The notes under the pieces were generated by a model. The model saw nothing but the letters and a program-made list of their open reading frames with translations, was not told where the DNA came from and ran no database searches. Both the position numbers and the translations under genes were made by a program. This document shows positions 3,255 to 34,543 of a DNA stretch of 35,709 bases, in pieces. Each line of letters begins with the position of its first letter. The first letter of the stretch is position 1. The stretch comes from a virus (Duplodnaviria > Caudoviricetes), in the IMG/VR virus record IMGVR_UViG_3300010383_000020, positions 1-35,709 of that record; one strand, given 5' to 3'.

Positions 3255-3263
3255 GCGATGATG

Positions 3264-3620: not shown

Positions 3621-3623
3621 GCG

Positions 3624-4562: not shown

Positions 4563-4572
4563 GGCGCTCCGC

Positions 4573-6822: not shown

Positions 6823-6824
6823 GA

Positions 6825-7856: not shown

Positions 7857-7863
7857 GCGGGCC

Positions 7864-8301: not shown

Positions 8302-8310
8302 GTTAGGCCC

Positions 8311-8799: not shown

Positions 8800-8809
8800 G
8801 GCGACGTCC

Positions 8810-9675: not shown

Positions 9676-9914
9676 GGGCCGCTCCGGCTGTAGGAACCGC
9701 AGCAGCAGCCGCGACGGACGTGGTCGCGCCAGCAGCTGCACCGATAGGGGGGCGGGGCCGGGGACGCCCGGCCGAGGGGCGGTTGCGGCGGGGCGGGCCG
9801 CCGTCGCCCGGCGGGCTCGGGGCCGCTGACGCCGGCTTCCGGGGCCGAGCCCCCGCCGCTGTATGACAGGCGGACGCACAGGCCCGCCGCGAATCCGAGG
9901 ACGAACGCGAGCAT
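9672..9914 (-). CDS. Small membrane-anchored Cys-rich hypothetical protein
   Basis: GAGGAGG SD, hydrophobic N-terminus, CSCW...GCCCG; stop overlaps the connector start. Confidence 0.55.
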   Translation of the reverse strand: MLAFVLGFAAGLCVRLSYSGGGSAPEAGVSGPEPAGRRRPAPPQPPLGRASPAPPPYRCSCWRDHVRRGCCCGSYSRSGP

Positions 9915-9980
9915 CAGGTGCCCTCCTCGACGACCGGGCGAGGCCCCCGAGGGAGCCCCGCCCCGCCGACGTCGGCCGGA

Positions 9981-11282
9981 TCAGGCGGTGACGACGCCCT
10001 TGGCGATCGTGAACGCCTTGGGCTGGAGGACGTGGAAATCCATGTCCTGGAAGACCCGGACCTCGCGGCCGCCCGCGTCGTCGATCTCGCCGAAGACGAC
10101 GTCCAGGCCCGAGAACAGCGAGACGGCCGACTCGCCCCACACGCCATAGGCGATGTGCGAGGTGTTGGCCGACGATCCGGTCGTCACGTTGCCCGGGACG
10201 TGGTCCGTGGTCGCCACCGGGCGGCCGACGATCTTCTCGGAACCGGGATCGTACAGGTAGACGGGATATCCCGTCTCGGCCGGGGTGGCTTCGAGCTTCG
10301 AGGTCACCTTGGAGTTGGTGAGGAACGAAGCCGGGCCGGCCGCGTTGCTGCCGACGACCGGGGCGATCATGGCGAGCAGCTTGTTGCGGTCGAGCGCCGA
10401 CCCGTTCGTGCCGAGGCTCACCTCGTTGATGCCGTCGCTGGCGTTGGTGAGGGCGAAGAAGCCCTTAGGGGCGCCGCCGCTTCCCGGCCCGGTGAAGGCC
10501 CCGATCTGGATGCGGGCCGCGACCGCCTTGAGCAGGTAGTTCATGAGCCACGCCTCGGCGTCGATCGAGGCCGAGATCATCATCATGCGGGTGACGCGCC
10601 CCTTGGCGGCGGCGGTGTGCAGCGCGAAGCTGACCGCGTCGAGGGCCGGCGACCCGTCGGCCGGGGCGACGTCCTCGCCGACGAAATAGGACGTCGCAGA
10701 CGTCGACCGGGGGAGCTTGAAGGGCCCGTCGGCCGGCAGGACGGAGACGCCCAGCCGGGGGAGGACCATTTGGGCCATCAGCGCGTCGATGAGCGGCATC
10801 CGGACGACCTCGGCGATCGCCCCGGCACCGGTCGTCGTGGTGACCGCCGCCCGCGTCAGGAACTCGGCGTCGAGCGGGATGACGACGCCGCGAGTGGTCA
10901 GGCCGGACGCGGCCCGGATCTTCACCAGCTCCTGGTGTTCCTCGGCCTCGATGCCGTCGAGGGTGCCGAGGTAGGCCCCGCGAAGGGCCTTCGCCGGGTT
11001 GTACTGGTGCCGCTTGTTCGCGGGGTCCTGGTGCGGGAGCGTGATCGGCTTGGACCGCCGGTCGCTCCGCTCGGACCGCCGCTTCTCGATGTCGGCGACC
11101 TTCGCGGCCCGCAGCTCGCCCGCGTCGAGGGCCTTTTCGGCCTTCTCGACGGCCTCGGCCGCGTCGTCGAGGGCCTTCGTCTGGTCGTCCGTCGGGGCCT
11201 CGGCCGCCTCAACGGCGCCCTTGGCGTCGGTGAAGCGCGTGTAAGCCTCGTCGAGCGCCGCCTTCAGCGTGGTGAGATCCAT
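9981..11282 (-). CDS. Major capsid protein, HK97 fold, with N-terminal delta/scaffold region
   Basis: Coiled N-terminus; YFVGE, GPGSGGAPKG, IVGRPV, YGVW motifs; follows the protease. Confidence 0.92.
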   Translation of the reverse strand: MDLTTLKAALDEAYTRFTDAKGAVEAAEAPTDDQTKALDDAAEAVEKAEKALDAGELRAAKVADIEKRRSERSDRRSKPITLPHQDPANKRHQYNPAKALRGAYLGTLDGIEAEEHQELVKIRAASGLTTRGVVIPLDAEFLTRAAVTTTTGAGAIAEVVRMPLIDALMAQMVLPRLGVSVLPADGPFKLPRSTSATSYFVGEDVAPADGSPALDAVSFALHTAAAKGRVTRMMMISASIDAEAWLMNYLLKAVAARIQIGAFTGPGSGGAPKGFFALTNASDGINEVSLGTNGSALDRNKLLAMIAPVVGSNAAGPASFLTNSKVTSKLEATPAETGYPVYLYDPGSEKIVGRPVATTDHVPGNVTTGSSANTSHIAYGVWGESAVSLFSGLDVVFGEIDDAGGREVRVFQDMDFHVLQPKAFTIAKGVVTA

Positions 11283-11288
11283 AAAACC

Positions 11289-11933
11289 TCAGTTACCTTT
11301 CCGGGCCTTGCGGGCCGTTTCGATCCGGGTGAAGCGTTCCGAGCGGGCCGCCAGCCATGCGGCCTTCGAGGCCGCCCGGCATCGGGCCTCGACGTCGAGG
11401 CAGCGGGACTTGATCTCGACGGACGTGGTCGGGTAGGCGGGATAGGTCACCGCCGAGGCGTCGAACAGGTCGACGTCGCTGATGTCGGTCTCGTAGACCG
11501 TCCTGCCGCCCTCGGTGCGGGACCGCGACTCCTCGCCGCCCGGGCGGGGGCGGAAGGCGAATGAGCATTCGGATATGTTGCCGAGTCGCAGGTTTTCCGC
11601 CAGGTCCCGGGCCGCCTGCGTGTTGGGGAGCGCGACTTCGAAGTAGAGCCCTTCGGGGTCGTCTCGCAGGACCAACGTCCCGGCCTTGGTGCGTCCCAGG
11701 ATCAAGGTCGGGTTGTGGTCGATCAGGAATCGGACGTCCTGGCCGCCCTCGACGGCCTTGCGGCACGCCCCCCGCTTGATCGTCTCGACGAAGCGATAGT
11801 CCTCGGACTCGTAGAGGACCGTCGGCTCCTCGTAGCGGACCGCGTAGCCCGAGAGGACGACCGGCCCCCCGTCCGCCTCGGACCGCGTCCGATACCCGGC
11901 CTCGATCGTGCGTCTCAGGGTGTTAGCCGCCAT
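11289..11933 (-). CDS. HK97-family prohead protease
   Basis: GYAVRY, FLIDHN...LGRT, SFAF, SAVTYPAYPTT. Confidence 0.95.
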   Translation of the reverse strand: MAANTLRRTIEAGYRTRSEADGGPVVLSGYAVRYEEPTVLYESEDYRFVETIKRGACRKAVEGGQDVRFLIDHNPTLILGRTKAGTLVLRDDPEGLYFEVALPNTQAARDLAENLRLGNISECSFAFRPRPGGEESRSRTEGGRTVYETDISDVDLFDASAVTYPAYPTTSVEIKSRCLDVEARCRAASKAAWLAARSERFTRIETARKARKGN

Positions 11934-13158
11934 CCCCAGCCCCCTTCACGTCGGACATGTTCAGCTGGACGTAATGCTTGTCGCCGCCCTCGTAAGCCTC
12001 TTCGCCTTCCGCGAGGGCCCAGCGATTGCCGGTGATGACGCCCCGGTCGAACATGGCCGAGAAACGGGCCGTCCGGGCCGCCGAATCCATCTTCAAGAAT
12101 GAGTTCAAGTCATGTTTGAACGCGTAGCCGGCCCGCTGTTCCTTGTCCGTCAAGAGCTTGAGATTCAGCATTTGCTCGACGGTCTGGGCGATGGGGCCGA
12201 TGGTCGTGGAGAGATAGACCAACGTCTCGTGCTCGACGGTCGAATAGTTGTAGCCGTCCAGTTCGGCCACGCGATTCGGGGGCGTCCCGGTGATGCGGCA
12301 CGCCTCGTAGATCGCGAACTTGCGGCTTTCGAGCAGCTGGGATTGCGCGGGGTTGACGCTGATCTGCTGGTACTTCGCGTCCGGGGGGAGGACGGCCGTC
12401 GAGCCGGCCGCCTCGTCGCCCTCGGTCATCTTCTTCCAGTCCTCCAGCAGCTCCTTGCGGGCCTCGGGCGTGTAAGACGGGCTCGTCTGGAGGACCCCGC
12501 TCGACTTCGCCCCGCCCCGCATGAAGGCCGCCGCGTGCGACTCCAGGACGGCCGACAGGCCGAGCGACTGCCGGCAGAGCCGGACGCCCGAATAGCCGTA
12601 CAGGCCGTCGAACGACGGGCCGGAGACGTGGACGACCTTCTCGGCCGGCAGCGTCTCGCCGCCGTTGCGGTAGACCAGCCGCCCATTCTCGTAGTCGGGC
12701 CACGTCTCCCGGGGGTCGAGGAGCACCAGGGCGAGCCGCCCGTCCTCGTAGCGGACGATTTCGAGGTAGGTGTTCCCGTAGAGCAGCCGATGGACCGTCA
12801 TGGCGGTTTGGAATTGGGCGGGCGTCGACTGGCCGTCCGGCGATCGCGTGAACAGCGAATAGGCCGCATGGTCCCGGGCCGGGACGTCGCCCTTGTCGGT
12901 GCGGCGGACGAGCGTTATGGGTATCTGGCCGTAATCGCCGGCCTGGACGCGGACGCAGGCCCAGAACGCCGAGATGGTCAACGCGTTGTCCGGCGTGATC
13001 GCGACGCCGCTCGCGTTGGCGCCCGCCAGGTTCGCCCGGGCGGACATGATCCGCGACTCCCACCGGCCGGCGGGCGACGCGGATGCGGGCGCCGCCCGCT
13101 CGCGATACCGCCCGGGGCGGGGCTTCTTCTTCAGCACCACGGTCCCCCCGTTCGTCAC
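11923..13158 (-). CDS. HK97-family portal protein
   Basis: GTG 13158 coupled to terL stop; AFWACV, LLYGNTY, DGLYGYS, SQLLESRKF..EACRITGTPP. Confidence 0.93.
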   Translation of the reverse strand: MTNGGTVVLKKKPRPGRYRERAAPASASPAGRWESRIMSARANLAGANASGVAITPDNALTISAFWACVRVQAGDYGQIPITLVRRTDKGDVPARDHAAYSLFTRSPDGQSTPAQFQTAMTVHRLLYGNTYLEIVRYEDGRLALVLLDPRETWPDYENGRLVYRNGGETLPAEKVVHVSGPSFDGLYGYSGVRLCRQSLGLSAVLESHAAAFMRGGAKSSGVLQTSPSYTPEARKELLEDWKKMTEGDEAAGSTAVLPPDAKYQQISVNPAQSQLLESRKFAIYEACRITGTPPNRVAELDGYNYSTVEHETLVYLSTTIGPIAQTVEQMLNLKLLTDKEQRAGYAFKHDLNSFLKMDSAARTARFSAMFDRGVITGNRWALAEGEEAYEGGDKHYVQLNMSDVKGAGDGG

Positions 13159-14825
13159 CAGATGATCCGCCCGCTCGTGATGGGCTTGGGCGCCTTCGCG
13201 TCCTCGACCATGCGGTCGATCAGGCCCGCGATCGCGTTGACCAGGGCCGCCGCCGGGTCGATCTTGTCGGCCGATCGGTCCCGGTCGATGCGGATGTTCC
13301 CGTAGGCGTCCTTGATCGTGACCGCGTTGGCGATCGCCCACGACAGGACCGGGTTCGGCCGGCCGTCGGGCGTCTTGTGCCTCAGCAGGCGGCCCGCCAC
13401 GAGCCGGTCGAGTTCCTTCGTCGCCCCGCCGAGGGCCCCGGTCGTCTGGTGGATGATCTTGTAAGGGATGCTCGACGCTTCGAGGCCGGCCGAGAACTTC
13501 CGGGCCCCGTAGAAGTCGCCGTACGCGCTCTTGAACTTCGTCGCCGCGAAGCGGTCGTGGGCGTGCCGCAGGACCCGGGCGTCGTCCAAGACGTCCTCGT
13601 CGACGAGTTCGATCCAGCCCTCTTCGGCCCACCGCATGTAGGAGACGCCGTCGCGGCGGGACCGCTCCTCGGCCGTCCGCCGGGGGAGCCACACCTTGCA
13701 AAAGACGTCGATCCCGTCCTTGAGCGTCCCGCAGACGTCGACCCACGCCGTCAGGTCCCGGACCGACGCCAGGTCCCACCCCGAATACCAGGGGTCGCCC
13801 GAGGCGACGATCTCCTCGGGGGTCCGTTGCGGGGGGCAGGCGTCCCACGCGAGGACGTCGATGAACTTCCGGGCCGGCTGGCCCCAGATGTTCAGCCGTC
13901 GCTGCTTCCAGTCCTCGAAGTCGCCGGGCGAGTTCTTGGCCTTCAGGTAGTCGGCCTTGAACGACTCGTAGGTGATCGTGTGGCCGAGCGAAGGGTTGTA
14001 CTTGTACCAATTCGACTCGTCGTGCGGGTCGACCTCGTCCGTATCCCGGGGGCCGTAGACCTTGCCGTAGAAGTGGACGTCGTCCCGGGCCTTCGGGTCG
14101 CCGTCCTCCTGGCGCCAGGCCCGTTGGACCTGCTCGAAGAGGACGGACGTCCGGTCGTGGCCGGCCGTCGAGATGGCCAGCTGGAGCGGCTGGGCCCGCG
14201 TCGCCCCCGCCCCGTTGAAGACCGTCCAGGCGTCGCGGCGCTTGCCCGTGAAGAGGTGCAGCTCGTCGAAGATGACCGCCGAGAGGTTGCCGCCGTCCTT
14301 GTTGTCGACCTCGGCCGAGCACACCTTCGCGTACCCGCCGGTCTTCTCGCACTCGATCGTGAGGTAATATTCCTTGCACTCGAACTCGTCTTCGATCCGG
14401 GGCGAGTGCTTGACGTGCTCGGCCGCCTCCGTGTGCAGGATGGACGCCTGCGTCCGGTCGACCGCGACGAGCCGGATGTCGGGCCGGGCCTCGCCGTCCA
14501 TCCGCAGGAGGTAGAGGATCAGGGCCGCGAGGAGCCCCGTCTTGCCGTTCTTCTTCGGGATGACGATGAGGACTTCGCGGAACCGCCGGACGCCCGTCTC
14601 GCCGTGGACCCACCCGAAGACTTGCCAGAGGACTTCCCGCTCCCAGTCCAGCAGCCGGAACGGCTTGCCGGCGAACGGGCCGGCCGTCAGGATCAGGTAC
14701 GATTCGATGAACTTGACGGGGCGGTTGGCCCGCTTGCGGTCGAACACGTAGCCCCGCCGCATCGCCTCGCGGTCGGTCTCGGTGCGGACCGGCTCGAAGT
14801 CCTCGATGCGGAGCGTCGAGTCCAT
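13155..14825 (-). CDS. terL: Terminase large subunit
   Basis: ATG 14825; Walker A IPKKNGKT, Walker B IFDELH, ISTAG, GWDLAS, KIDPAAA. Confidence 0.97.
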   Translation of the reverse strand: MDSTLRIEDFEPVRTETDREAMRRGYVFDRKRANRPVKFIESYLILTAGPFAGKPFRLLDWEREVLWQVFGWVHGETGVRRFREVLIVIPKKNGKTGLLAALILYLLRMDGEARPDIRLVAVDRTQASILHTEAAEHVKHSPRIEDEFECKEYYLTIECEKTGGYAKVCSAEVDNKDGGNLSAVIFDELHLFTGKRRDAWTVFNGAGATRAQPLQLAISTAGHDRTSVLFEQVQRAWRQEDGDPKARDDVHFYGKVYGPRDTDEVDPHDESNWYKYNPSLGHTITYESFKADYLKAKNSPGDFEDWKQRRLNIWGQPARKFIDVLAWDACPPQRTPEEIVASGDPWYSGWDLASVRDLTAWVDVCGTLKDGIDVFCKVWLPRRTAEERSRRDGVSYMRWAEEGWIELVDEDVLDDARVLRHAHDRFAATKFKSAYGDFYGARKFSAGLEASSIPYKIIHQTTGALGGATKELDRLVAGRLLRHKTPDGRPNPVLSWAIANAVTIKDAYGNIRIDRDRSADKIDPAAALVNAIAGLIDRMVEDAKAPKPITSGRIIW

Positions 14826-14827
14826 GC

Positions 14828-15253
14828 TTATTCGTCCATCTCGTCGTCGATCGACCTCTCCCGCGACTCGGCCTCGAGCCGCGTGATCCTCGCCCGGGCC
14901 GTCGGGCTCAGGCCGAGTTGGTCCGCGTAGCGGGCCAGCTCGCCGCACGCCGCCTGCTCGACGCCCAGCATGGGGTGGGCCTTCACGCCGCCGGTCGCCC
15001 CCTCGACGGTCCACTTCTCCTTCTGGAGGACCCGCCGGGCCTTCACGAGCCGCGAATAGGCCGAGCAGAGGCAGGTCAGGGTGACCCCGTCCACCGGGGC
15101 GAGGACGTTGTCGCTCAGCAGGGGCGACGCGAGGGCGTCCCACAGGGCGGACGCCACCTTGTCCCGGTTGACCGTGTAGGGCTTGGTCAGGACGACCGCC
15201 CCGCCGTCGAGCGTCAGAGGGGCCGGGGCCGTCGATCGTGATTCCGCCGCCAT
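14828..15253 (-). CDS. terS: Terminase small subunit (P27 family)
   Basis: LCSAYS...KAHPML...LGLSPTARARI. Confidence 0.9.
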   Translation of the reverse strand: MAAESRSTAPAPLTLDGGAVVLTKPYTVNRDKVASALWDALASPLLSDNVLAPVDGVTLTCLCSAYSRLVKARRVLQKEKWTVEGATGGVKAHPMLGVEQAACGELARYADQLGLSPTARARITRLEAESRERSIDDEMDE

Positions 15254-15567
15254 CGGCCTTGGTTCCTACCCATCGTGATCCGCGAATGGCACTCCTGGCA
15301 GATGGATTCCAGGTTCGCCAGGTCGAAAGCCAGGTCTTTCCGCTCCTCCAGGTCCACCTTGTGGTGGACCTGGGTGGCGGGCGTGTCGAGGCCCCGGGCC
15401 GCGCAGGGCTCGCACATCGGATCCAGCTGGAGCTTGTGGGCCCGGCACTTTCGCCAGGCCGCCCGCTTGTAGAAGAGTTCCCGCTCGCGGGCTTCGGGCG
15501 TCTGGGGGGGAGGGGGCGGCCGGTAGACGCCGACGTGGGAGGGGGGGCCGTCGCGGCGGACGTTCAT
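15214..15567 (-). CDS. Packaging-associated HNH endonuclease (HK97 gp74-like)
   Basis: FY..AAWRKCR, PMCEPC, VHHK, NLESICQECHSRIT. Confidence 0.92.
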   Translation of the reverse strand: MNVRRDGPPSHVGVYRPPPPPQTPEARERELFYKRAAWRKCRAHKLQLDPMCEPCAARGLDTPATQVHHKVDLEERKDLAFDLANLESICQECHSRITMGRNQGRWRRNHDRRPRPL

Positions 15568-15956
15568 CAGGCCGCGAAGCCGTACACGAGCCGGCCGACG
15601 TGGCGGACGCCCGGGGCCCGCTCGGGGAGCGGCACCTCCACCGGCGGGGAGCCGGCCGGGTCCGGCGAGAGGGGGACCGTCGAGACGGCGAGCGGCGACG
15701 CCACCAGCTCGTCGGCCGACAGCGCGTCCAGGTACTCCGAGCCCTCGGGGATCGCGTAGAGCCGCGCCTCGGAGGCCAGGACCTGCGTCTCGGCGTCCAC
15801 CGCCGGGTTCGCGAGGGTCAGCACGCCCGTCGCGGGGTCCCACTCGACGGTGGGGAGGACGTCGGCCTTGCCGACCGGGCCGGGGTCGACGGCGACGAGG
15901 TCGATCAGCGGGCCGAAGACGTAGCGGTATGACATGCAGGCTGCCTTATTGGTCAT
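15567..15956 (-). CDS. Hypothetical protein
   Basis: 129 aa acidic ORF coupled to the HNH gene. Confidence 0.65.
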   Translation of the reverse strand: MTNKAACMSYRYVFGPLIDLVAVDPGPVGKADVLPTVEWDPATGVLTLANPAVDAETQVLASEARLYAIPEGSEYLDALSADELVASPLAVSTVPLSPDPAGSPPVEVPLPERAPGVRHVGRLVYGFAA

Positions 15957-24485: not shown

Positions 24486-27098
24486 GTGCCATCCCTATCC
24501 GACATCTACGGGCCCGGGGCCTCCAAAGGACCCGCCGCCCCCCGGCCCAAGTGCGAGACGCCCGACCGCATCGCGGCGTGGCTCAGGATGTTCGCCGCCG
24601 GGCCGATGATGGAGCTTCGCGCGCTCGGCCTCACCCCCGGCGGCCCCCGGACCGTGGTCGACCACTACCCGGCGACCCGCGAGGGCCTCCGCCGCATGGC
24701 CGAGGACGCCTGCAAATACTCGCCCAGGGCCGAGGGCGTCTACTTCGTCGTCAACCCGGTCCGCGACGACCTGCTGACGCCCGCCAAGGACGTCGACGTC
24801 CTCAAGCGGGCCTGGCTGTACGTCGACGTGGACCCGATCCGCCCCGTCGGCCCCGCGACCGACGCCGAGAAACAGTCCGCCTGGATCGTCGCCCAATCGC
24901 TCCGCGACGCCCTGTCCGCCCGCGGCTGGCCGGCCCCGATCGTCGTGGACAGCGGCAACGGCTACCACCTGTACTACCGCGTCGACCTCCCCGCCGAGGA
25001 CGGGGGGCTCGTCGCCCGCGTCCTCGCCCGCCTGGCCGCCGAATTCGACACGCCCGACGCCAAGGTCGACACGGTCGTGGCCAACGCGTCGCGCGTCGCC
25101 AAGGTCCCCGGGACGCTCGCCCGCAAGGGGGAGGAGTCGCCGGGCCGCCCCTATCGCGCCTCCTACGTCCTCGAAGCCTACGGGTCGATGGAGGTCGTCC
25201 CCGAGGCCCTGTTGCGGGACCTCGGGGGGGAGGAGCCCGCCCCGGCCCCCGAGCCGGCCGAAGCGGCCCCGAAGCGGCCCACCGGGACGCGCGTCCCCGG
25301 GGCCCCGACCGGCCCCCTGACCGTCGAGCAGCGGGCCGCCCTCTACCTCGCCAAGGTCGACCCCGCCGTGAGCGGCGAGGGGGGCCACAAGACCGCGTTC
25401 CGGGCCGCGATGGTCGGGCCCGCGTTCGACCTTCCCCAGGACGTCGCGGCCCGGCTGTTTGAGGAACTGTACAACCCGCGATGCGTCCCGCCGTGGTCGC
25501 CCCGCGAGGTCGCCCACAAGGTCGCCGAGGCGTACAAAGTCGAACAGCGGCGGGGGTGGCTGCTGGAGGCGTCCCGGCCGACGTCGGCCCCCTCCCCCGC
25601 CCCGGCCCCCGAGCCGACCGAACCGGCCCCGGTCGCGTCCTCGCCCGCCCAGCTCGCCGCCGCGACGCCGCCCGCGCCCGAACCCCTCGACGCCGTCCTC
25701 GCCCGGAAGATGCGGACCGACATGGGCAACGGCGAGCGCTTCGTCGCCCGCCACGGCCGGGACGTCCGCTACTGCAAGCCGTGGGGCGACTGGCTCGTCT
25801 GGGACGGCCGCCGCTACGCGCTCGACGAGACCAACGCCGTGCATCGGCTGGCCAAGGACACCGCCCGCCGCATCCTCGTCGAAGCGGCCACGATCGCCGA
25901 CGACGACGAGCGCAAGCGGCACGTCGAGCACGCCGTCAACACCCAGGGCAAGTCCCGCATCGACGCCATGACCGCGATGGCCGCCACCGAGCCGGGGATA
26001 CCGATCCTCCCCGGCGAGATGAACCAATGCGGCTGGCTGCTCAACTGCCTGAACGGGACCGTGGACCTGCGGACCGGCGAGCTCCGGCCCCACGACCGGG
26101 CGGACCTGCTCACGCAGCTCTGCGAGGTCGAGTTCGACCCGGACGCGAAATGCCCGCAGTGGGAAGCGACCCTCGACCTGTTCTTCGCCGGGGACAAGGC
26201 CCTCATCGCCTACTGGCAGCGCATCTGCGGATACGCGCTCGTCGGGCTCGTCCGCGACCACGTGATGCCGGTCGCCTACGGGGACGGGTCGAACGGCAAG
26301 AGCACGATCCTGGGGACCGTCCAGGACGTATTGGGGCCGTCCTATGCGATGAAGGCCCCGCCCGCGATGCTGATGGCCAAGACCCACGACAGCCACCCGA
26401 CCGACCGGGCGGACCTGTACGGGAAGCGGCTCGTCATCGCCATCGAGACCGAGGCCGGCCGACGCCTCGACGAGACGATGGTCAAGGAACTGACGGGCGG
26501 CGACCGCATCCGGGCCCGACGCATGCGGGAGAACTTCTGGGAGTTCTCGCCGTCGCACACGATCATCATGGCCACGAACCACAAGCCGGTCGTGAAGGGG
26601 ACGGACAACGGGGTCTGGCGCCGCCTGCGGCTGATCCCGTTCGCGGTCAAGGTCGAGGGCGAGACGGCCGACACGTCGATGCCCGAGAAGCTCCGGGCCG
26701 AGTTCCCCGGCATCCTCGCGTGGTGCGTCCGGGGCTGCCTCGCCTGGCAGGAGGTGGGCCTCAACGAGCCCGCCGTCGTGAAGCAGGCGACGGCCGCATA
26801 TCGCTCCGAGCAGGACGTCGTCGGCCTCTTCCTCGACGAGCGGGCCATCCTCTCGCCGGGACTCCGCACCCGATGCAACGCGTTCTTCGAAGCCTACAAG
26901 TCGTGGGCCGAGGCGGCGGGCGAGCGGCCCATGACCATGCGGGCGTTCGGGCAGGCCATGAAGGAACGCGGGATCGAGGTCAAGACCAGCAACGGCAAAT
27001 GGTATCTCGGCGTCGGCCTCAAAGTCGTCGACTCGTCGCCCTACGGCCGCGACGAGGAATGGGCCGACTCGGAAGCCGCGCTCGTCGCATACAGGTGA
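24486..27098 (+). CDS. Primase-helicase (AEP-like primase, D5_N, P4-family SF3 helicase)
   Basis: YVDVD, DSGNGYHLYY; TDMGNGERF; Walker A GDGSNGKST; KELTGGD, ATNHKP, GVWRR. Confidence 0.93.
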   Translation: MPSLSDIYGPGASKGPAAPRPKCETPDRIAAWLRMFAAGPMMELRALGLTPGGPRTVVDHYPATREGLRRMAEDACKYSPRAEGVYFVVNPVRDDLLTPAKDVDVLKRAWLYVDVDPIRPVGPATDAEKQSAWIVAQSLRDALSARGWPAPIVVDSGNGYHLYYRVDLPAEDGGLVARVLARLAAEFDTPDAKVDTVVANASRVAKVPGTLARKGEESPGRPYRASYVLEAYGSMEVVPEALLRDLGGEEPAPAPEPAEAAPKRPTGTRVPGAPTGPLTVEQRAALYLAKVDPAVSGEGGHKTAFRAAMVGPAFDLPQDVAARLFEELYNPRCVPPWSPREVAHKVAEAYKVEQRRGWLLEASRPTSAPSPAPAPEPTEPAPVASSPAQLAAATPPAPEPLDAVLARKMRTDMGNGERFVARHGRDVRYCKPWGDWLVWDGRRYALDETNAVHRLAKDTARRILVEAATIADDDERKRHVEHAVNTQGKSRIDAMTAMAATEPGIPILPGEMNQCGWLLNCLNGTVDLRTGELRPHDRADLLTQLCEVEFDPDAKCPQWEATLDLFFAGDKALIAYWQRICGYALVGLVRDHVMPVAYGDGSNGKSTILGTVQDVLGPSYAMKAPPAMLMAKTHDSHPTDRADLYGKRLVIAIETEAGRRLDETMVKELTGGDRIRARRMRENFWEFSPSHTIIMATNHKPVVKGTDNGVWRRLRLIPFAVKVEGETADTSMPEKLRAEFPGILAWCVRGCLAWQEVGLNEPAVVKQATAAYRSEQDVVGLFLDERAILSPGLRTRCNAFFEAYKSWAEAAGERPMTMRAFGQAMKERGIEVKTSNGKWYLGVGLKVVDSSPYGRDEEWADSEAALVAYR

Positions 27099-27104
27099 TA
27101 TCAC

Positions 27105-27461
27105 ATGACCGCACTTCAACGCGCCCCGTCCGCCGTCGTCGCCCGGAAGAACGGCGAGACGTCGACCCTGACGGACCAGCTCAAGGCCCTCGCCTCGACG
27201 CTCGTCCCCGGAGACGACGGGCGGGGCGCCACCGAGGCCGTCGCGGCGGGGGTCGACTGGACGGATTGGGACCTGATCGAAGAGGGCGTGGACGTGGAGG
27301 GGCTGCTACGCCGACCGGCCGGGCCGCTGAACTGGCGGGAGATGGACGACGCGGCCCGGGAGCATCACCGCCGCCTCTACGCCAAGTCGACGAAGCGCAA
27401 GGGGACCAAGGGCGGGACGCCGCTCCTGGACGGGGCGGGGAAGAGACCGGCTCGGAACTAG
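27105..27461 (+). CDS. Hypothetical protein
   Basis: 118 aa directly after the primase gene. Confidence 0.6.
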   Translation: MTALQRAPSAVVARKNGETSTLTDQLKALASTLVPGDDGRGATEAVAAGVDWTDWDLIEEGVDVEGLLRRPAGPLNWREMDDAAREHHRRLYAKSTKRKGTKGGTPLLDGAGKRPARN

Positions 27462-27493
27462 GACCACGAACCTTCATTCATCGAGACTTCAAC

Positions 27494-27937
27494 ATGCATC
27501 GCGTTTCCGGACTCACGCTCGCCATGCTTTCGTTCTCCCTCTGGTGCGTGTTCGCGGTCGGCCTGCTCGCGACCCGCTCCGACACATCGTTGTTCCCGAC
27601 GGCTGGCCCCCCGCCCGGCCCGGCGATGGGCTGCACGCACGACGTGAAACACTCGCTGCACATCCTCCACGAAGACTGGCATGGGGCCGTCGTCCAGGAC
27701 CACGAACGAACGTTCTTCGTGCCCGCCGAAGGCTGGGGCAATTACCCGCCAAAGTTGCAATCCACCATGAGGGTCCTCCGCGCCGAGAAGTTGGACGAAC
27801 AGGCCCGGCTCGACCTGTACCGGAAGTGCGAGCGCTTGCAGGCCGAGATGGCCGCCCACGAGGACGGGACGGCGGGCGCGTGCATCGGGAAGGCCCTCGA
27901 ACGCCTCTTCGGCTACAGCCAAAGGAAGCCCGAATGA
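27494..27937 (+). CDS. Hypothetical protein with N-terminal TM/signal
   Basis: ATG 27494 MHRVSGLTLAMLSFSLWCVFAVGLLA. Confidence 0.6.
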   Translation: MHRVSGLTLAMLSFSLWCVFAVGLLATRSDTSLFPTAGPPPGPAMGCTHDVKHSLHILHEDWHGAVVQDHERTFFVPAEGWGNYPPKLQSTMRVLRAEKLDEQARLDLYRKCERLQAEMAAHEDGTAGACIGKALERLFGYSQRKPE

Positions 27938-28278
27938 TGCGCAACTACTGGCCGCCGCCGACCCGGCGGAGACGCCCGGAAGACGACCCGCCGCCGTCGC
28001 CGGAGCATCTGGCGTACGTCGCCGGTCTCCGGCGAAAGGCGGCCGCATTCAACGCGAGCGACTTCGGCATGAAGCCTTGCCCGAGGTGCGGCGGGACCGA
28101 GGGCGTCGGGATCTCCCGGCCGCCCCGGACCCACAGGCGGGATTCGTTCCGTTTGAAGCAAGGCATCCACCCGGAATGCGGCTACGCCGGGCCGCGCGTC
28201 TACGGCGGGATCCAGGACGCCGTCAACGCGTGGAACGCCGTCGACCGCTCCCATCTACCCATCCAGGAACCATCATGA
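27934..28278 (+). CDS. Lar-like (restriction alleviation) Zn-finger protein
   Basis: KPCPRCGG...ECGYAGP...AVNAWN. Confidence 0.65.
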   Translation: MMRNYWPPPTRRRRPEDDPPPSPEHLAYVAGLRRKAAAFNASDFGMKPCPRCGGTEGVGISRPPRTHRRDSFRLKQGIHPECGYAGPRVYGGIQDAVNAWNAVDRSHLPIQEPS

Positions 28279-28550
28279 ACGCACGAGCCGAAGCGATCCG
28301 GGCCCAGGGCGAGGTCGACCACATCGTTGCGGCGGACGACTGCACCTGTCCCGAGTGCCCCGTCTGCAAGGTCCAAGGCGATCCCAAATGCAAGTCACGG
28401 TGCGTCGTCGAGGGGGTTGTCGCCGTGCTCGCCCAACTCGACAGGCTGGCCGAGGTGTGGGGCGACGAAGGCGTGTTTAGGCGGTGCCGCGACTCCCTGC
28501 GGGAGCTCACCGCGTTCGCCGCCTACCACGGCGGGGAGGCGACCCCGTGA
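28275..28550 (+). CDS. Cys-rich hypothetical protein
   Basis: ATG 28275; DCTCPECPVC...GDPKC. Confidence 0.6.
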   Translation: MNARAEAIRAQGEVDHIVAADDCTCPECPVCKVQGDPKCKSRCVVEGVVAVLAQLDRLAEVWGDEGVFRRCRDSLRELTAFAAYHGGEATP

Positions 28551-28759
28551 CCGTCGCCAGCTTCGGCCCCACCGCCCGCCGGCTCGCCCGCGAGGCGAGG
28601 GAGGCCGCGTCCACCGCCCGGGGGTCCGCCTTCATCCTCGAAGGCGGCGACCCCGATTCCGACGAAGCCCGGAGATTCCAGGACGCGGCCCGGCTGTTCG
28701 ATCAGGCCGCCGCCGCCCTGGCGACCCACCGAGAGAGGACCACCGTTGGCCAAAGGTAG
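28547..28759 (+). CDS. Hypothetical protein
   Basis: GTG 28547 after GGAGG, GTGA overlap. Confidence 0.5.
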   Translation: MTVASFGPTARRLAREAREAASTARGSAFILEGGDPDSDEARRFQDAARLFDQAAAALATHRERTTVGQR

Positions 28760-29492
28760 AGCGTTCGCCAAGCCCCTCGCCGTCAAGCGCACCGAGTTCG
28801 CGGGGGTCCTGTACGACTCGAAGGCGGAAGCCCAGCGGGCCGCCGCCCTCGCCCAGCTGCGGGACGCCGGCCTCGTCAAAGCCGTCTTCCGGCAGGTCAA
28901 GGCGGACGTCGGCGAGGCCGGGATCGACAAGCCGTATCGGATCGACTTCCTGGTGATCGCCCTGGACGCCGAGGGCGGCATCGAGGCGTGGGCCGAGGAC
29001 GTCAAGGGAGCCGACTCGCCGACGTTCCGGCGCCACGTCAAGCAATGGGAGCGGCGGGGCGGCATCCCGCTCCGCGTCTATCGCCGTGGGAAGCTGGCCG
29101 AGACGATCCCCGGCGGCCGGCGATACCACGAACCCGTCTGGAACGGGACCGTCGTCGACGGCATCGACTACGGGTCCAAGTACCGGGCCCAGATCGCCGA
29201 GGGGCTGTCCCAGCGGCGCATCTACGGTTCCGTCGCCGCGTGGTTCCGGGGCGTCGCCACGGGCGTCGAGGCCCTGCCCCAGGCCGCGTTCCTCGTCATC
29301 CCCTCGGGCGACCCGATGGCCGCGATCGTCACCGAATACGGCGAGCCCGAAGCCTGGATCGCCACCCCGGGGGGCGTGCTCCCCTCCTCGGCCGTCGACG
29401 CCTGGCGGGCGTCCGGCCCGGTCACCCTCTGCGTCCACGATTCGACCGCCCACAACGTCCGATGGCGCGTCCGCCCGGAGTCCTGGAAATGA
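28746..29492 (+). CDS. DUF1064-like PD-(D/E)XK nuclease with an extra C-terminal domain
   Basis: YDSKAEAQR...YRIDF...EDVKG. Confidence 0.75.
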   Translation: MAKGRAFAKPLAVKRTEFAGVLYDSKAEAQRAAALAQLRDAGLVKAVFRQVKADVGEAGIDKPYRIDFLVIALDAEGGIEAWAEDVKGADSPTFRRHVKQWERRGGIPLRVYRRGKLAETIPGGRRYHEPVWNGTVVDGIDYGSKYRAQIAEGLSQRRIYGSVAAWFRGVATGVEALPQAAFLVIPSGDPMAAIVTEYGEPEAWIATPGGVLPSSAVDAWRASGPVTLCVHDSTAHNVRWRVRPESWK

Positions 29493-29710
29493 CCCCGCTG
29501 ATCCTCGCATTCCTACTCGGCTTCTGGACCCTGCCTCTCGTCTTCGTCGCGTGGCGAGCCAAAGTCGAACTGCCGGAGTACTGGGCCAAGCGGCGATACG
29601 ATGGCGACGCCTGGCCCGAGTCCGCCGCCGTCGTCATCGTCGCCGTCGCCCTCGTGACCCTCGCCGCCCCCTACTTCATGTGCCGAGCCGCCCGCGCCGC
29701 ATTCTCATGA
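29489..29710 (+). CDS. Small two-TM membrane protein
   Basis: ATG 29489; two hydrophobic segments. Confidence 0.6.
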   Translation: MTPLILAFLLGFWTLPLVFVAWRAKVELPEYWAKRRYDGDAWPESAAVVIVAVALVTLAAPYFMCRAARAAFS

Positions 29711-29737
29711 GCCGCCCACGCCCCGGCCCCTCCCCCG

Positions 29738-29762
29738 CCCCGCCCTTCCGGCGGGGTTTTTT
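29738..29762 (+). terminator. Intrinsic terminator ending the early operon
   Basis: CCCCGCC-CTTCC-GGCGGGG followed by TTTTTT. Confidence 0.85.
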
Positions 29763-29770
29763 GTTGCGCC

Positions 29771-29799
29771 TTGATTGCTACACACCTTTTGAGTAGCCT
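29771..29799 (+). promoter_or_regulatory. Sigma70 promoter of the plasmid-maintenance operon with inverted repeat
   Basis: TTGATT-17 nt-TAGCCT; GCTAC...GTAGC inverted repeat 29777-29797. Confidence 0.65.
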
Positions 29800-29843
29800 G
29801 GATCCGTCCGACTGAACCGCACCAAGAATCGGAGGGTGGGGCC

Positions 29844-30047
29844 GTGGCCAAGACCGCGAAGAACGCATCCGGGGAAGCCGTCCAGGTCGCACGCCGGAAC
29901 GTGTTCCTCGACGCCCCGACCGAAGACGTGATCGCCCGCGTGATCGCCGAGGTCCGGGGCGTGGACAACCGATCGGCCGCGATTCGCTGGATGGCGGGCC
30001 CGGCCCTCGCGGAACTGGACCGGATCAAGGGGAGGTCGAACGCGTGA
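29844..30047 (+). CDS. CopG/RHH-like regulator
   Basis: RRNVFLD...NRSAAIRWM; GGAGG SD; upstream of rep. Confidence 0.7.
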   Translation: MAKTAKNASGEAVQVARRNVFLDAPTEDVIARVIAEVRGVDNRSAAIRWMAGPALAELDRIKGRSNA

Positions 30048-30141
30048 GTGTGCGCGCGCGTCACACTGGACAACAGTGAGCGGGCGCGGGAAGATGGGTC
30101 GCCCCAGGCGCAAACCTCGGGCCAAACGTTCGAAATGAAAA

Positions 30142-30173
30142 GACCCCGCCGGAGGGCCAACTCCAGCGGGGTC
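30142..30173 (-). terminator. Hairpin in the rep leader (candidate terminator of an antisense RNA)
   Basis: GACCCCGC/GCGGGGTC stem with inner GGAG/CTCC; T-run follows on the minus strand. Confidence 0.5.
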
Positions 30174-30197
30174 GAAAAAGCTTCTGAGGTAGAAGCC

Positions 30198-31067
30198 ATG
30201 ATCGCGCTATGCGCCGAGAAAGTCAAGCCCGCTTTCCCAATCCCATTCCAATTCCGGGCCGAGCCCGTCGGGCTCCGGGAATCCCGGAAGGTCAGCGGGT
30301 CCGCCGTCGCGCTGTTCACCGCGATCCTCGACGACGCCAAGCGTCGGGGCTGGCGATGCCGTCTCAGCAACGCCGCGCTCGCCGAGCGGATCGGCCGGAC
30401 GACGATGACCGTCAAGCGTCTCCTCGCCGAGCTTGAAGCGGCCGACATGGTGGCCCGGGACATGATCGCCGGGGGCCGCGTCCGCCTCGCGATCGTCGTG
30501 ACCTGGGAGGGGGTGGAACATTCCCGCTCCACCGACGTCCGTCCAGTGGAACATCCCCGATCCGGGGGTGGAACATCCCCGACCCAGGGGGTGGAACATT
30601 CCCGTTCCACGATTCAGAGCGTCCCACAGACTCAGATTCAAACCGCCCCGATCCTCCCCCCTCTCGGAGAAGACCCGGAGAGCCAGGTCCCCGACGGGCC
30701 GACGGCCGCGAGGATGCTCCGGGCGATGATCGCCAAGGGACGCGAGCCGGCCGCCCCGGCCGTCGCCACGGCCCCCCCCGCCCCGCCCCCGACGCCGGCC
30801 CCGAAGCCCTCGCCCGCGAAGGCCGCCCCCGTGCCCGAGGACGAAGCGAGGCGGGCCGTCGCGCGGATGGCCGGGGGGGTCTTCAAGGACGCCAGGCGGG
30901 CCGCGTGGGGGCCGCCGCCGGGCCGCCGCCGGATGACGCCCGCCGAGCTTCAAAGGCAGCTGGCCGAGGTCCGCAGGAAGTACGGGTCCTCCTCTCGACG
31001 AATCGCTCAACCGGCCGAGCCGTCGCGCCGATCTATCACCGACGTGGGCGGCGCGTACAGCCGCTAA
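30198..31067 (+). CDS. HTH replication initiator (Rep), putative
   Basis: ATG 30198 after GAGG; wHTH pattern LSNAALAERIGRTTMTVKRLLAELEAADMV; internal iterons; upstream of parAB. Confidence 0.75.
   Translation: MIALCAEKVKPAFPIPFQFRAEPVGLRESRKVSGSAVALFTAILDDAKRRGWRCRLSNAALAERIGRTTMTVKRLLAELEAADMVARDMIAGGRVRLAIVVTWEGVEHSRSTDVRPVEHPRSGGGTSPTQGVEHSRSTIQSVPQTQIQTAPILPPLGEDPESQVPDGPTAARMLRAMIAKGREPAAPAVATAPPAPPPTPAPKPSPAKAAPVPEDEARRAVARMAGGVFKDARRAAWGPPPGRRRMTPAELQRQLAEVRRKYGSSSRRIAQPAEPSRRSITDVGGAYSR
30513..30610 (+). repeat. Four iterons GTGGAACAT(T/C)CCCG inside rep (candidate plasmid origin)
   Basis: Starts 30513, 30546, 30568, 30591 (spacings 33, 22, 23). Confidence 0.85.
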
Positions 31068-31125
31068 ACACGGGTCGGGCCGTCGAGGCCGACCCGGCCC
31101 CCGAACCGGCTGTTTAGCGGCTCAA
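31056..31125. promoter_or_regulatory. Candidate parS: two KorB-operator-like palindromes around a hairpin
   Basis: TACAGCCGCTAAA 31056-31068 and TTTAGCGGCTCAA 31113-31125 versus RK2 OB TTTAGCSGCTAAA. Confidence 0.65.
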
Positions 31126-31152
31126 CTGGTCGCCGAACGGAGGGCGTCGAAC

Positions 31153-31971
31153 GTGATAGTCGTGACTTTGCTGAACCAGAAAGGCGGGGTCGGTAAGACG
31201 TCCTGCACCCACCATCTGTCCGGGGCCCTCGCGGCTTCGGGGAGGCGGGTCCTGATCGTCGACGCCGACCCGCAAGCCAGCCTCACGCAAGGCTGGTGGG
31301 GCCCCGAGGGCCTGGACGCCTTCGCCCCCTCGGAGACCGTGGCCGCGATCCTCGATGGGTCGCTCCCCTCGCCGTCGCGGCTCATCCGCCCGACCGGCCT
31401 GGACGGGCTCGCCATCGTCCCGGGGTCCGAGGCCGCCGCCAGCTTCAACACGCCCGATCCGCATTCGGTCGAACGCGAGCGGCGGGAGTCCATCCGCGAG
31501 TTCCTGGCCGAGGTCCGGGACGACTTCGACGTCACCCTGATCGACTGCCCCCCGAACCTCTACCTATGTTCCTTCGCGGCCCTGGCCGCGTCCGATTACA
31601 TGGTCGTCCCGGTCCAGCCGGAAGACTACGGGGCGCAGGGGATCGCCGCCGTCCATCGGTCCCTCGGGCTGGTCCAGAGCTTCGGGCATCCCGTGCGGCT
31701 TCTCGGCTACCTGCTGACGATGGTCCAGCCTCGCCGGGCCTTGCACCAGGTCTATGAGGCCAACCTCCGGAACGCCTACGGCTCGCAGGTCTTCGAAGCC
31801 CGCTTTCCCGATCTCCCAGACTATCCCGAGTCCATCGCCGCGCGGATGACCATCGGCCAGTACAAGCCGAAGGGGGCCGCGTCGAAGCATGTGAAGGCGA
31901 TCGCCGCCGAACTCATGGAGCGGATCGCGTCGGCGGAGCAGGGGGCTTGCGAAGAGGGGGTGGCCGCGTGA
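31153..31971 (+). CDS. parA: ParA/Soj partition ATPase
   Basis: NQKGGVGKT, VDADPQASLT, IDCPP. Confidence 0.97.
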   Translation: MIVVTLLNQKGGVGKTSCTHHLSGALAASGRRVLIVDADPQASLTQGWWGPEGLDAFAPSETVAAILDGSLPSPSRLIRPTGLDGLAIVPGSEAAASFNTPDPHSVERERRESIREFLAEVRDDFDVTLIDCPPNLYLCSFAALAASDYMVVPVQPEDYGAQGIAAVHRSLGLVQSFGHPVRLLGYLLTMVQPRRALHQVYEANLRNAYGSQVFEARFPDLPDYPESIAARMTIGQYKPKGAASKHVKAIAAELMERIASAEQGACEEGVAA

Positions 31972-32876
31972 GCAAGTTCGACAGGCTTCAAGCGTTCGCC
32001 GGGAACATCAACGCGTCCATCGGCAACCGGCCGGGGGCCCCCGGCCCGAGCGTCGCCCCGGCGGCGGTCCCCGCGAAGGAAGTGGGCGTCTCGCGCTCGC
32101 GGGACGCGATGGAGATCGAAGTGGAGCGGATCATCCCCGACCCCCACCAGCCCCGGAAAGAGTTCGAAGAAGAGCCCCTCGCGCGGCTCGCCGAATCCTT
32201 GAAGGGTAGGGGGCAACTCCAGCCGATCCAGGTCCGATGGAGCGCGGAAGCCGAGCGTTATATCGTCCTGACGGGCGAGCGTCGGTGGCGGGCGGCCCAG
32301 CTCGCGGGCCTCGCCAAGCTCCGATGCATCGTCCGCCCGGACGACGCCGACGCGTCCGACCGGCTCGTCGACCAGCTCGTCGAGAACTGCCTGCGCGAAG
32401 ACCTGACGCCGATGGAGCAGGCGAGGGCCTATCGGACGCTGATGGACGCCAAGGGATGGTCCGTCCGCCAGTTGGCCGAGGAACTGGCCATCTCCCCCGG
32501 CCGCGTGTCCCAGATGACCGCGTTGCTCTCGCTCCCCGAGCCGGTGCAGGCCCGGGTCGATCAGGGCGAATTGTCTTCGACCGCCGCCTATGAAATCTCG
32601 CGGCTCGACGACCCGGCCGCGCAAATCCGCCTCGCGGAGACGGCCGCCGAACAGAAGCTCACACGCGAGGACGTCGCCAAGCAAACCCGCCGGCCGCCGT
32701 CGAAGCGGAAGGCGTCCGCGAAGCTTCCCACGACGGCCGTTTTGCGGCTAAACGGATGCCGCATCGAGATCACCCGCAAGACGGGACTCGACCCGGCCGT
32801 CGTCTACGCCGCGTTGCTGGAGGCCGCCGAGAAGTATCGGCCGGAGCCGCTTTCGGCCGAGCAAGAGGCCGCCTGA
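31968..32876 (+). CDS. parB: ParB/Spo0J partition protein
   Basis: GTG 31968; QPRKEF, GQLQPI, GERRWRAA, ENCLREDL, HTH. Confidence 0.96.
   Translation: MSKFDRLQAFAGNINASIGNRPGAPGPSVAPAAVPAKEVGVSRSRDAMEIEVERIIPDPHQPRKEFEEEPLARLAESLKGRGQLQPIQVRWSAEAERYIVLTGERRWRAAQLAGLAKLRCIVRPDDADASDRLVDQLVENCLREDLTPMEQARAYRTLMDAKGWSVRQLAEELAISPGRVSQMTALLSLPEPVQARVDQGELSSTAAYEISRLDDPAAQIRLAETAAEQKLTREDVAKQTRRPPSKRKASAKLPTTAVLRLNGCRIEITRKTGLDPAVVYAALLEAAEKYRPEPLSAEQEAA
32740..32752. promoter_or_regulatory. Third parS-like palindrome inside parB
   Basis: TTTTGCGGCTAAA, one mismatch to TTTAGCGGCTAAA. Confidence 0.5.
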
Positions 32877-33245: not shown

Positions 33246-33267
33246 CCGGGCTGCCTGAAACTCGAAA

Positions 33268-33300
33268 CGGCCCCGGCCCCGAAACACGGGGACGGGGCCG
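33268..33300. terminator. GC hairpin after the par operon
   Basis: CGGCCCCG/CGGGGCCG outer stem with inner CCCCG/CGGGG; no clear U-tract. Confidence 0.45.
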
Positions 33301-33575: not shown

Positions 33576-34136
33576 ATGAGCGCTACATCCACCGAAGAGC
33601 AGGGGTGGCCCCCTTTCACCTATCAGGGGGCCACCTACGATCTTGCCCACCTTGAACCCTTCCCCCTCCTGTACACCACCTCGACGGATGGCGTCGAACT
33701 GACGCGGAACATCCTGGTCGAATTCACGGACCACTGTTTTACGGACAAGTTCGGCGACGGCGACGATCCGGATTTGCTCTACGTGGCGCGCGAGGGCAGG
33801 AAAGAGGGGAGCCGGTTCTGTTTCGACAGGTACAAGCTCTCGCTGACCCTCAGCGGGCACTTGAAGGCGATGGTGGACGGGAATGTCTACCAAGTCGAAT
33901 CCGACAGATACGCCGTCTTCCGAGACATCGTGCACGGCGGAAAGCAGGGGTTTTACGCCATCTACTTCACGATGGACAGGTGGTCGCGAGGCTACCACTT
34001 GAAGATGCGGGTACGAAGCGCGTTCGCCCGTCCGGACCGCCCGTACGACTACGGGAAAGTCCGCTTCAAGAATCTGGTCGACCTCAGGCTAAAAGGCGTT
34101 CACCCGAAGAAGATCCAAAGCCGGAAGCGGCGATGA
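33576..34136 (+). CDS. Accessory protein, putative BECR/RelE-like RNase toxin
   Basis: Less GC-rich, aromatic-rich: YDLAHL, FTDHCFT, RFCFDRYKLS, C-terminal MRVRSAF strand; fold call is inference. Confidence 0.55.
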   Translation: MSATSTEEQGWPPFTYQGATYDLAHLEPFPLLYTTSTDGVELTRNILVEFTDHCFTDKFGDGDDPDLLYVAREGRKEGSRFCFDRYKLSLTLSGHLKAMVDGNVYQVESDRYAVFRDIVHGGKQGFYAIYFTMDRWSRGYHLKMRVRSAFARPDRPYDYGKVRFKNLVDLRLKGVHPKKIQSRKRR

Positions 34137-34144
34137 CTTCGGGC

Positions 34145-34172
34145 AAAAAAAATAGGCCCCGAAGGGCCTATT
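34145..34172 (-). terminator. Intrinsic terminator on the minus strand
   Basis: AATAGGCCC-UUCG-GGGCCTATT running into a T-tract (A8 on plus, 34145-34152). Confidence 0.85.
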
Positions 34173-34437
34173 GAACGCTCCGTGGAGCGTCATGGGGCGA
34201 ACCTCTTCACCCGCCTCGCGGCAGGGTATCCGACCCGTTCGGGTCGAACTCGGCTTTGGGGCCGAGCGGGGCTGGCTATGCTCACGCCCTTATGTCCAGC
34301 GCTGTGGGCATCTTAACCCTGATAGGGTCGCCTGGGAAGTCCCAAGCCGGCCCTTTTCTTCCGTATTAAGGTCGTCGTTCGGGGCGAGACTCCTTTAATC
34401 ACCATACGAACGGCGGAAGAAATCCCGAACTCCCACC
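34145..34437 (-). ncRNA. Candidate highly structured ncRNA (~290 nt)
   Basis: At least 7 contiguous hairpins, possible pseudoknot, own terminator, CATAAT -10 at 34444-34449 (minus); no credible ORF. Confidence 0.6.
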
Positions 34438-34543
34438 AAGGAGATTATGGTTCCGTTTTCGCCGTCTGGACTTCGGTCGAGGCGGTTTGAATGACGTGAT
34501 TCGCGGCGGCGGATCACAAGCCCGCATGCAGAAAAGGAGTTCG

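Follow-up and report, generated by a model that had tools for sequence, protein, structure and literature searches.

What is the function of a yjaZ-like gene that faces, a few nucleotides beyond its stop codon, the end of a structured RNA encoded on the opposite strand? The question is raised by a stretch of 35,709 nucleotides, hereafter the window, which is the entire virus record IMGVR_UViG_3300010383_000020 (record G000), with direct terminal repeats at its ends. The original prediction, made from the sequence alone, had placed here an orphan ribonuclease (RNase)-like gene paired with a convergent RNA of about 290 nt. The gene is no orphan but belongs to the YjaZ/HtrC family. In its closest subfamily it is strictly paired with a covarying RNA of about 160 nt. 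This RNA is a new family, absent from Rfam 15 whatever its mechanism, and it has many sequence-divergent sister RNAs. We consider it probable, at roughly 60%, that the locus is a type III-like protein-RNA toxin-antitoxin pair that stabilises a ParAB phage-plasmid.

Extent, strand and structure of the convergent RNA

The features of the locus, in window coordinates, are:

33576..34136, plus strand: yjaZ/htrC-family gene, 186 aa, predicted BECR-fold RNase with a basic C-terminus (profile and structure comparison)
34144..34305, minus strand: conserved non-coding RNA element, about 160 nt long and convergent with yjaZ; predicted to be an antitoxin, with a predicted start at 34305-34303 (alignment A3, pair counts, model R1)
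34310..34338, minus strand: sigma-70 promoter predicted for the RNA, TTCCCA-17-TAAGAT (8/12 match)
34271..34300, minus strand: helix P1 (34300-34296 with 34275-34271), conserved 20-nt loop inside (100% of cells paired)
34195..34289, minus strand: predicted long-range pseudoknot that pairs GGGCG 34289-34285, inside the P1 loop, to CGCCC 34199-34195 (97% of cells paired)
34202..34270, minus strand: P2, which closes a four-way junction (34270-34268 with 34205-34202, one A bulged); P3 34267-34248, P4 34247-34230, P5 34227-34209 (compensatory changes)
34174..34191, minus strand: P6, a hairpin of variable length (5/6 pairs compensatory)
34144..34172, minus strand: the RNA's intrinsic terminator, with a 9-bp stem at 34151-34172, a cUUCGg loop and a U-tract at 34152-34145 (sequence; polarity in relatives)
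34306..34449, no strand assigned: extra hairpins and CATAAT box of the original prediction, outside the RNA (unconserved, marginal fold)

The proposed length of about 290 nt was rejected, conservation being confined to 34144-34305. Covariance model R1 matched the window at 34144-34306 with 129.9 bits (the window is within its training set), and the RNA is mostly 148-165 nt long in 48 distinct copies. The dense structure seen in the sequence was borne out for 34137-34450, which folds better than its shuffles whichever strand is taken (z -4.8 for minus, -4.3 for plus), but 34306-34470 folds only marginally (z -1.9 and -1.3). This latter part had no real match in the other fetched loci, the one 14-nt hit having E 0.73. 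The helices at 34175-34190, 34213-34222, 34231-34246, 34249-34266 and 34271-34300 are present as placed. So is the minus-strand terminator, except that 8 nt and not 9 separate the stop codon from its A-tract. A scan of the whole window against Rfam gave no gathering-level match, and the weak matches were terminator-like or to a CRISPR repeat.

The RNA had been placed on the minus strand with some reserve. In the 45 nt 5' of the RNA, a sigma-70 promoter with at least 9/12 matches was found on the RNA strand in 34 of 48 relatives and on the opposite strand in none (0/48). The -10 box ended 5-6 nt from the extracted RNA start in 45 of the 48 distinct copies. At least five U follow the terminator on the RNA strand in 21/23 subfamily loci, compared with 0/23 on the yjaZ strand. 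From these signals in the relatives, we regard the minus orientation as settled. The predicted promoter in the window (-35 TTCCCA at 34338-34333, 17 nt, -10 TAAGAT at 34315-34310) scored below the threshold of one of the scans and is weaker than that of the relatives (TTGAC-17-TATAAT, same place). It lies 2-3 nt nearer the RNA, and the start was therefore placed at 34305-34303. This likely promoter at 34338-34310 lies, like the CATAAT box, outside the conserved element. A longer transcript from that box in the window phage is unsupported; Escherichia coli SroH, described below, is about 30 nt longer at its 5' end than its plasmid relatives, so some 5' extension might be possible in the window as well. 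The CATAAT box is also the opposite strand of the start region of a 15-codon open reading frame (ORF; 34438-34494 on the plus strand, start 34447), which is preceded by a good ribosome-binding site, AAGGAG.

The structure was tested on A3, a MAFFT alignment of 35 sequences that was not fitted to structure. In the model comprising P1, the pseudoknot, P2, P3-P5, P6 and the terminator, 95.9% of cells were paired and compensatory change occurred at 28 of 44 pairs; none of 500 shuffles matched it, and slid controls reached 26-47%. P3-P6 covary strongly, with compensatory changes at 7/7 pairs of P3, 6/7 of P4 and 4/4 of P5, the last partly dependent on alignment register. Two of the three P2 pairs have one compensatory change each. 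P1 covaries at one pair, the outer (G-C in 20 and A-U in 15 of the 35 sequences). The long-range pseudoknot between GGGCG and CGCCC is likely. Its paired sequences vary between subfamilies, and compensatory change is absent within the subfamily. The H-type pseudoknot proposed earlier for 34304-34311 did not survive, since it forms 8 pairs on the plus strand only (4 on the minus), overlaps the predicted -10 box and has a plus-strand run of at most 5 in 48 homologs.

RNAalifold proposed an alternative core (9-13 with 109-113; 18-20 with 37-39) that is equally well paired. We prefer P1, P2 and the pseudoknot, though this is not settled, because the RNAalifold core omits the 7:36 pair, which covaries in 15/35, and breaks in one locus (L026). 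Beside a full-length yjaZ match in another locus (L087, 1485-1592) is a minimal RNA of 108 nt in which P3-P5 are not separate arms. This suggests that P1, P2 and the pseudoknot are the working core.

The YjaZ family and its pairing with the RNA

The window protein matched NF007263 over residues 8-151 with E 1.9e-9. The score is below the equivalog cutoff, and the protein is therefore a family member and not the ortholog of the K-12 protein. It is in PF27200 by precomputed assignment, and its structural match to YjaZ/HtrC is close (Atlas 0.97, TM 0.82). Searches of a Pfam copy, PADLOC, PHROGs and PDB sequences found nothing for it. No homologs were found in INPHARED phages or, by one peptide pattern, in IMG/VR. 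The RNase-like fold that had been proposed fared unevenly. The closest structural neighbours are BECR-fold RNases (RelE/ParE/HigB/BrnT, colicin D, PBECR4, MuF-C), all with low scores, but Foldseek against PDB gave no match at E 0.001. These comparisons weakly suggest a nuclease fold of the RelE/colicin-D type (BECR). The conserved residues are H25, H53, T56, R85, S89, Y127 and S148-A149. H53 is invariant across 121 sequences, and H25, R85, S89, Y127 and S148 are each present in at least 90%. H53, R85, Y127 and S148 may form the active pocket of a nuclease.

A metagenome scan with a peptide pattern gave 55 loci, of which 41 (L003-L043) are closest to the window. The RNA element was found 3' of yjaZ in all 41 (two cut by contig ends), using a model built from 35 copies; 23 of the 41 loci had served to train it, and related samples are the source of many contigs. 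The covarying RNA beside homologs that the prediction had named as a check is present throughout the subfamily. R1 had no match in the 14 more distant loci or in E. coli, SroH included. In the reverse direction, a 21-letter DNA pattern gave 56 matches in GTDB. Eighteen of these were given to the model, and the remaining 38 lack a second motif; 17 are full RNA copies. In 15 of the 17 full copies yjaZ lies upstream on the opposite strand, and none of the 39 other matches has it within 1.5 kb. The two exceptions are a genome with a broken yjaZ (L091) and one with no match (L101); RNA copies that outlast a broken or absent toxin gene are as expected of an antitoxin. In the latter genome, the RNA copy (1373-1537, minus strand) follows a gene which by eye resembles the ImmA/IrrE type. 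The hosts of the RNA copies include Planctomycetota, Chloroflexi, Proteobacteria and others.

The RNA is still intact where it is separated from yjaZ by 733 bp (L018) or 993 bp (L014). Inserted in the gap (L014 3035-4027, L018 3047-3779, L012 about 1275-1370) are a gene of the GNAT type, one that is GyrI-like and a short element with inverted repeats; the gap is possibly a hot spot for insertions. Among 29 subfamily loci, 6 have ParA next to the pair. In the 101 of 152 neighbour ORFs that were scanned, no adjacent protein partner recurred. The RNA pairs with the start of its own messenger RNA (mRNA) no better than with others (-45.1 vs -45.1 kcal/mol, 20 loci).

The family reaches E. coli K-12, where yjaZ (htrC, b3989) is faced on the opposite strand by the 161-nt small RNA (sRNA) SroH (b4691, RF00372), which ends 2 bp from the stop codon. 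A promoter, TTGTAA-17-TATGAT, is at the matching place, and the scan puts the start 165 nt from the yjaZ stop. This islet occurs in 3741 of 5426 E. coli genomes. The spread of the family is patchy and on mobile elements: homologs were found in about 1% of sampled genomes (5/400, 4/401 and 1/301, centres included) and on 592 plasmid records, 372 of them from Klebsiella; many Klebsiella plasmid homologs share an identical score. Of 10 loci scanned, RF00372 matched only L002 and L135, and one match adjoins yjaZ on a Klebsiella ColE1-type plasmid. htrC is listed as ColE1 cargo (PMC5864857), sroH as patchily lost (PMC3318445), and a yjaZ deletion has served merely as a marker (PMC4666387). SroH is polyadenylated, and it is expressed and accumulates in the absence of poly(A) polymerase, in a pcnB mutant (PMC5389530). 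We found no literature that pairs YjaZ with SroH or any RNA, in a search that left subscription journals and bioRxiv supplements largely outside. The available parts of PMC12804078 and bioRxiv 10.64898/2026.09.22.753630 have no mention of yjaZ or sroH.

In the distant loci the RNA sequences differ, and a hairpin lies near the stop codon. At least five antisense U were found in 18 of 26, with the hairpin not located in 2 more. Among 34 loci, made up of the window and 33 distant ones, the antisense promoter match beat the sense one in 29, fell short of it in 3 and equalled it in 2. An AAGAGG-like motif recurs. By eye, these loci have P1, P2, a multiloop and a segment complementary to the P1 loop which differs between subfamilies; compensatory changes in P2 are seen, also by eye, in Klebsiella and Serratia plasmid copies. 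A loose topology descriptor gave no separation (means 19.0 antisense, 18.9 sense, 18.6 shuffles). Automatic anchors gave p 0.039, with several of them misplaced. With hand-placed anchors, a score of at least 4 was reached in 27 of 29 loci compared with about 50% of non-cognate pairs (p 1.4e-4, 19 subfamily representatives), a test biased by pairings that were seen beforehand and made without L137, L138, three loci truncated at a contig end and seven copies that were near-duplicates or of the same family. L137 and L138, on Vibrio plasmids, have YjaZ homologs with no convergent RNA recognised and count against a shared pairing and topology; in L138, yjaZ is unannotated and the profile match reaches only position 155. 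The distant yjaZ RNAs, E. coli included, may share their topology with the window RNA. The tail-to-tail layout is kept across proteins of 25-40% identity, many phyla and unrelated neighbourhoods. RNA types track protein clades, which indicates co-inheritance only, and the proteins of the SroH clade lack H25 and S89.

Some plasmid loci with the RNA (L123, L125, L126) have a gene for a helix-turn-helix regulator that overlaps or abuts the start of yjaZ. An Enterobacter IncFII plasmid (L141) and Klebsiella plasmids like it carry a yjaZ homolog and its convergent RNA near restriction, recombinase and methyltransferase genes. Defence genes are neighbours at some loci (Shedu at L128, restriction genes at L141 and L126).

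Possible functions of the pair

For a toxin-antitoxin pair, we postulate the following mechanism. The RNA would be transcribed from its own predicted promoter, fold into the predicted pseudoknotted four-way junction, and bind directly and block the protein, a predicted BECR-fold RNase whose activity would be toxic. We infer that the RNA decays faster than the protein. Loss of the element would then end the RNA supply and free the nuclease (addiction), and another phage that shuts off host transcription would free it as well (abortive infection). We favour this type III-like reading because the pairing is strict, the core fold is conserved, the RNA has its own predicted promoter and it outlasts broken genes. 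It is also favoured by the separations of 733-993 bp without decay, the lack of cognate mRNA-start pairing and of a recurring protein partner, the presence on 592 plasmids, the ParA adjacency (6/29) and the accumulation of SroH without poly(A) polymerase.

Several points weigh against it. The structural scores behind the nuclease fold are low, and the yjaZ mRNA may extend across the RNA gene. MG1655 is viable with sroH deleted (a secondary citation, in PMC13572404), and SroH bound kbl mRNA in vitro (PMC6172242). The missing H25 and S89 of the SroH clade, or a barely expressed yjaZ, could explain the viable deletion. Of the RNA-protein system originally predicted, there stands a nuclease-like gene strictly paired with a structured convergent RNA; its length, its pseudoknot and the orphan status of the gene had to be corrected, the gene belongs to a named family with an E. 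coli member beside SroH, and that viable deletion counts against a toxin-antitoxin function.

The RNA might instead be part of an active YjaZ ribonucleoprotein, as its cofactor, sensor or guide, and not a simple inhibitor; a phage protein or RNA, for example, could switch such a particle on. The viable sroH deletion and the defence neighbours at some loci are in keeping with this. So is the fold: variable hairpins surround a fixed core, and the whole is bigger and more intricate than the ToxI repeats. We nevertheless think this reading unlikely, as RNA copies outlive broken genes, and variation was seen in hairpin arms and in no segment resembling a guide. Antisense action in cis is improbable. 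Here the yjaZ mRNA would read past a one-way terminator, and the convergent RNA would pair with its 3' untranslated region and trigger decay, as in a type I-like system. Many type I systems do have a tail-to-tail layout and an antisense RNA with its own promoter, and the yjaZ strand lacks a U-tract in 23/23 subfamily loci. But the invariant loop and junction bases and the kept four-way fold would be needless for a pure antisense RNA, which would also not be expected to persist 733-993 bp away behind inserted genes, and pairing with the mRNA start has no cognate advantage.

Very unlikely, in our view, is a protein that is no toxin and merely shares its islet with a trans-acting sRNA, which is the current description of SroH. 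The weak fold scores of the protein, the binding of kbl mRNA and an envelope-stress phenotype linked to SroH (PMC13572404) agree with it. It does not account for a tail-to-tail pairing that is kept at such low protein identity in so many phyla and unrelated neighbourhoods; that RNA types track protein clades also speaks against it, as co-inheritance only.

Tentatively, YjaZ proteins and their convergent RNAs could form a widespread, unrecognised class of toxin-antitoxin or defence systems, with a BECR-fold nuclease and a single, separately transcribed, pseudoknotted multi-way-junction RNA as substrate mimic. The K-12 yjaZ-sroH pair and hundreds of plasmid copies would be included. If so, a BECR toxin fold and a convergent, single-unit layout with its own promoter would be added to RNA-antitoxin systems, a function would be proposed for yjaZ/htrC and sroH, two genes of E. 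coli K-12 that have long lacked an explanation, and several hundred plasmids would carry an unannotated maintenance module.

The carrying phage and known systems

The window has genes for terminase, portal, protease, capsid, head-tail and tail proteins, the siphophage-type head and tail genes being at 896-15843 (minus strand). Genes for a D5-type primase, a Holliday junction resolvase, a winged-helix initiator, ParA and ParB are also present; the primase, initiator, ParA and ParB are at 24486-32876 (plus strand). No integrase was found among the window ORFs scanned (Pfam, PHROGs and other scans).

30048..32876, plus strand: the carrying phage's winged-helix replication initiator, ParA and ParB (Pfam, PHROGs)

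Because Rep, ParA, ParB and terminal repeats are present and an integrase was not found, the virus is likely a phage-plasmid. The yjaZ/RNA locus sits directly 3' of parAB in a stretch that, as predicted, is GC-poorer (59-60% vs about 70%). A long GC-rich inverted repeat at 33266-33300 (GGCCCCGGCCCCG...CGGGGACGGGGCC), 5' of the yjaZ promoter region, is possibly the terminator of the parAB unit. The host is likely a planctomycete (Isosphaeraceae), because the protein closest by identity (39%, L085) and the match of a nearby repeat to CRISPR arrays of such genomes point there. This lone repeat, with one copy in the phage (34544-34574, plus strand), resembles the repeats in type I-C-like arrays from three Isosphaeraceae/Planctomycetota genomes and is a candidate solitary-repeat RNA anti-CRISPR, Racr (PMC10651486). 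A target of its flanks was sought in the phage and none was found, and we therefore see no CreTA-like link to yjaZ. Among sequencing runs, no RNA run was listed as containing the sequence, and one DNA run with a small share covers two 151-nt pieces, which speaks neither for nor against expression.

Among known pairs, E. coli yjaZ-sroH is like the window locus in its YjaZ-family protein, opposite-strand RNA, place of the promoter and, by eye, order of P1, P2 and pseudoknot. The RNAs themselves have no sequence similarity either way (RF00372 has no match in the window, nor R1 in SroH).

To our knowledge, the partners of BECR-fold toxins are all proteins. The conserved His before the core helix of YjaZ and the Ser/Thr on the last strand fit the pocket described for BECR-fold RNases (10.64898/2026.08.28.747851), and the main text of that preprint does not mention a non-coding RNA or an RNA antitoxin. 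A conserved adjacent protein antitoxin, the mark of type II systems, was not found here; the upstream helix-turn-helix gene is present in some loci only.

Other toxins are held by structured, less repetitive, directly bound RNAs, as in AbiF-AbiFr/RCd22 (HEPN) and AvcID, which is similar to our proposed mechanism. In AbiF the protein is of the HEPN type and its RNA lies upstream (PMC12737573), and RCd22 is upstream and co-transcribed (PMC12737573; 10.1101/2025.04.15.648962). AvcD, unlike the window protein, is a deoxycytidine monophosphate (dCMP) deaminase. The window has no abiF RNA motif by Rfam, and the protein had no match to the Abi_2/HEPN family.

The toxins of ToxIN, CptIN and TenpIN have a MazF/Kid-like fold. 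ToxIN/AbiQ, CptIN and TenpIN resemble the window locus in having an RNase gene (here predicted) with an adjacent pseudoknot-bearing RNA, on plasmids and phages. Neither the window protein nor its alignment had a match to ToxN, CptN or TenpN in Pfam, NCBIfam, PADLOC or PDB sequences. The classical type III antitoxins are tandem repeats that are co-transcribed upstream of the toxin and cut by it (PMC13682666; 10.1101/2025.04.15.648962). The window locus differs, as had been anticipated, in a single non-repetitive RNA unit that is downstream and convergent on the opposite strand, with its own predicted promoter, and in the BECR-like fold of its protein. By its sequence signals, it has one feature of type III systems in general, a dedicated RNA gene linked to the gene of the predicted toxin. 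It stands outside the ToxIN/CptIN/TenpIN and AbiF families, though its mode of action is likely similar.
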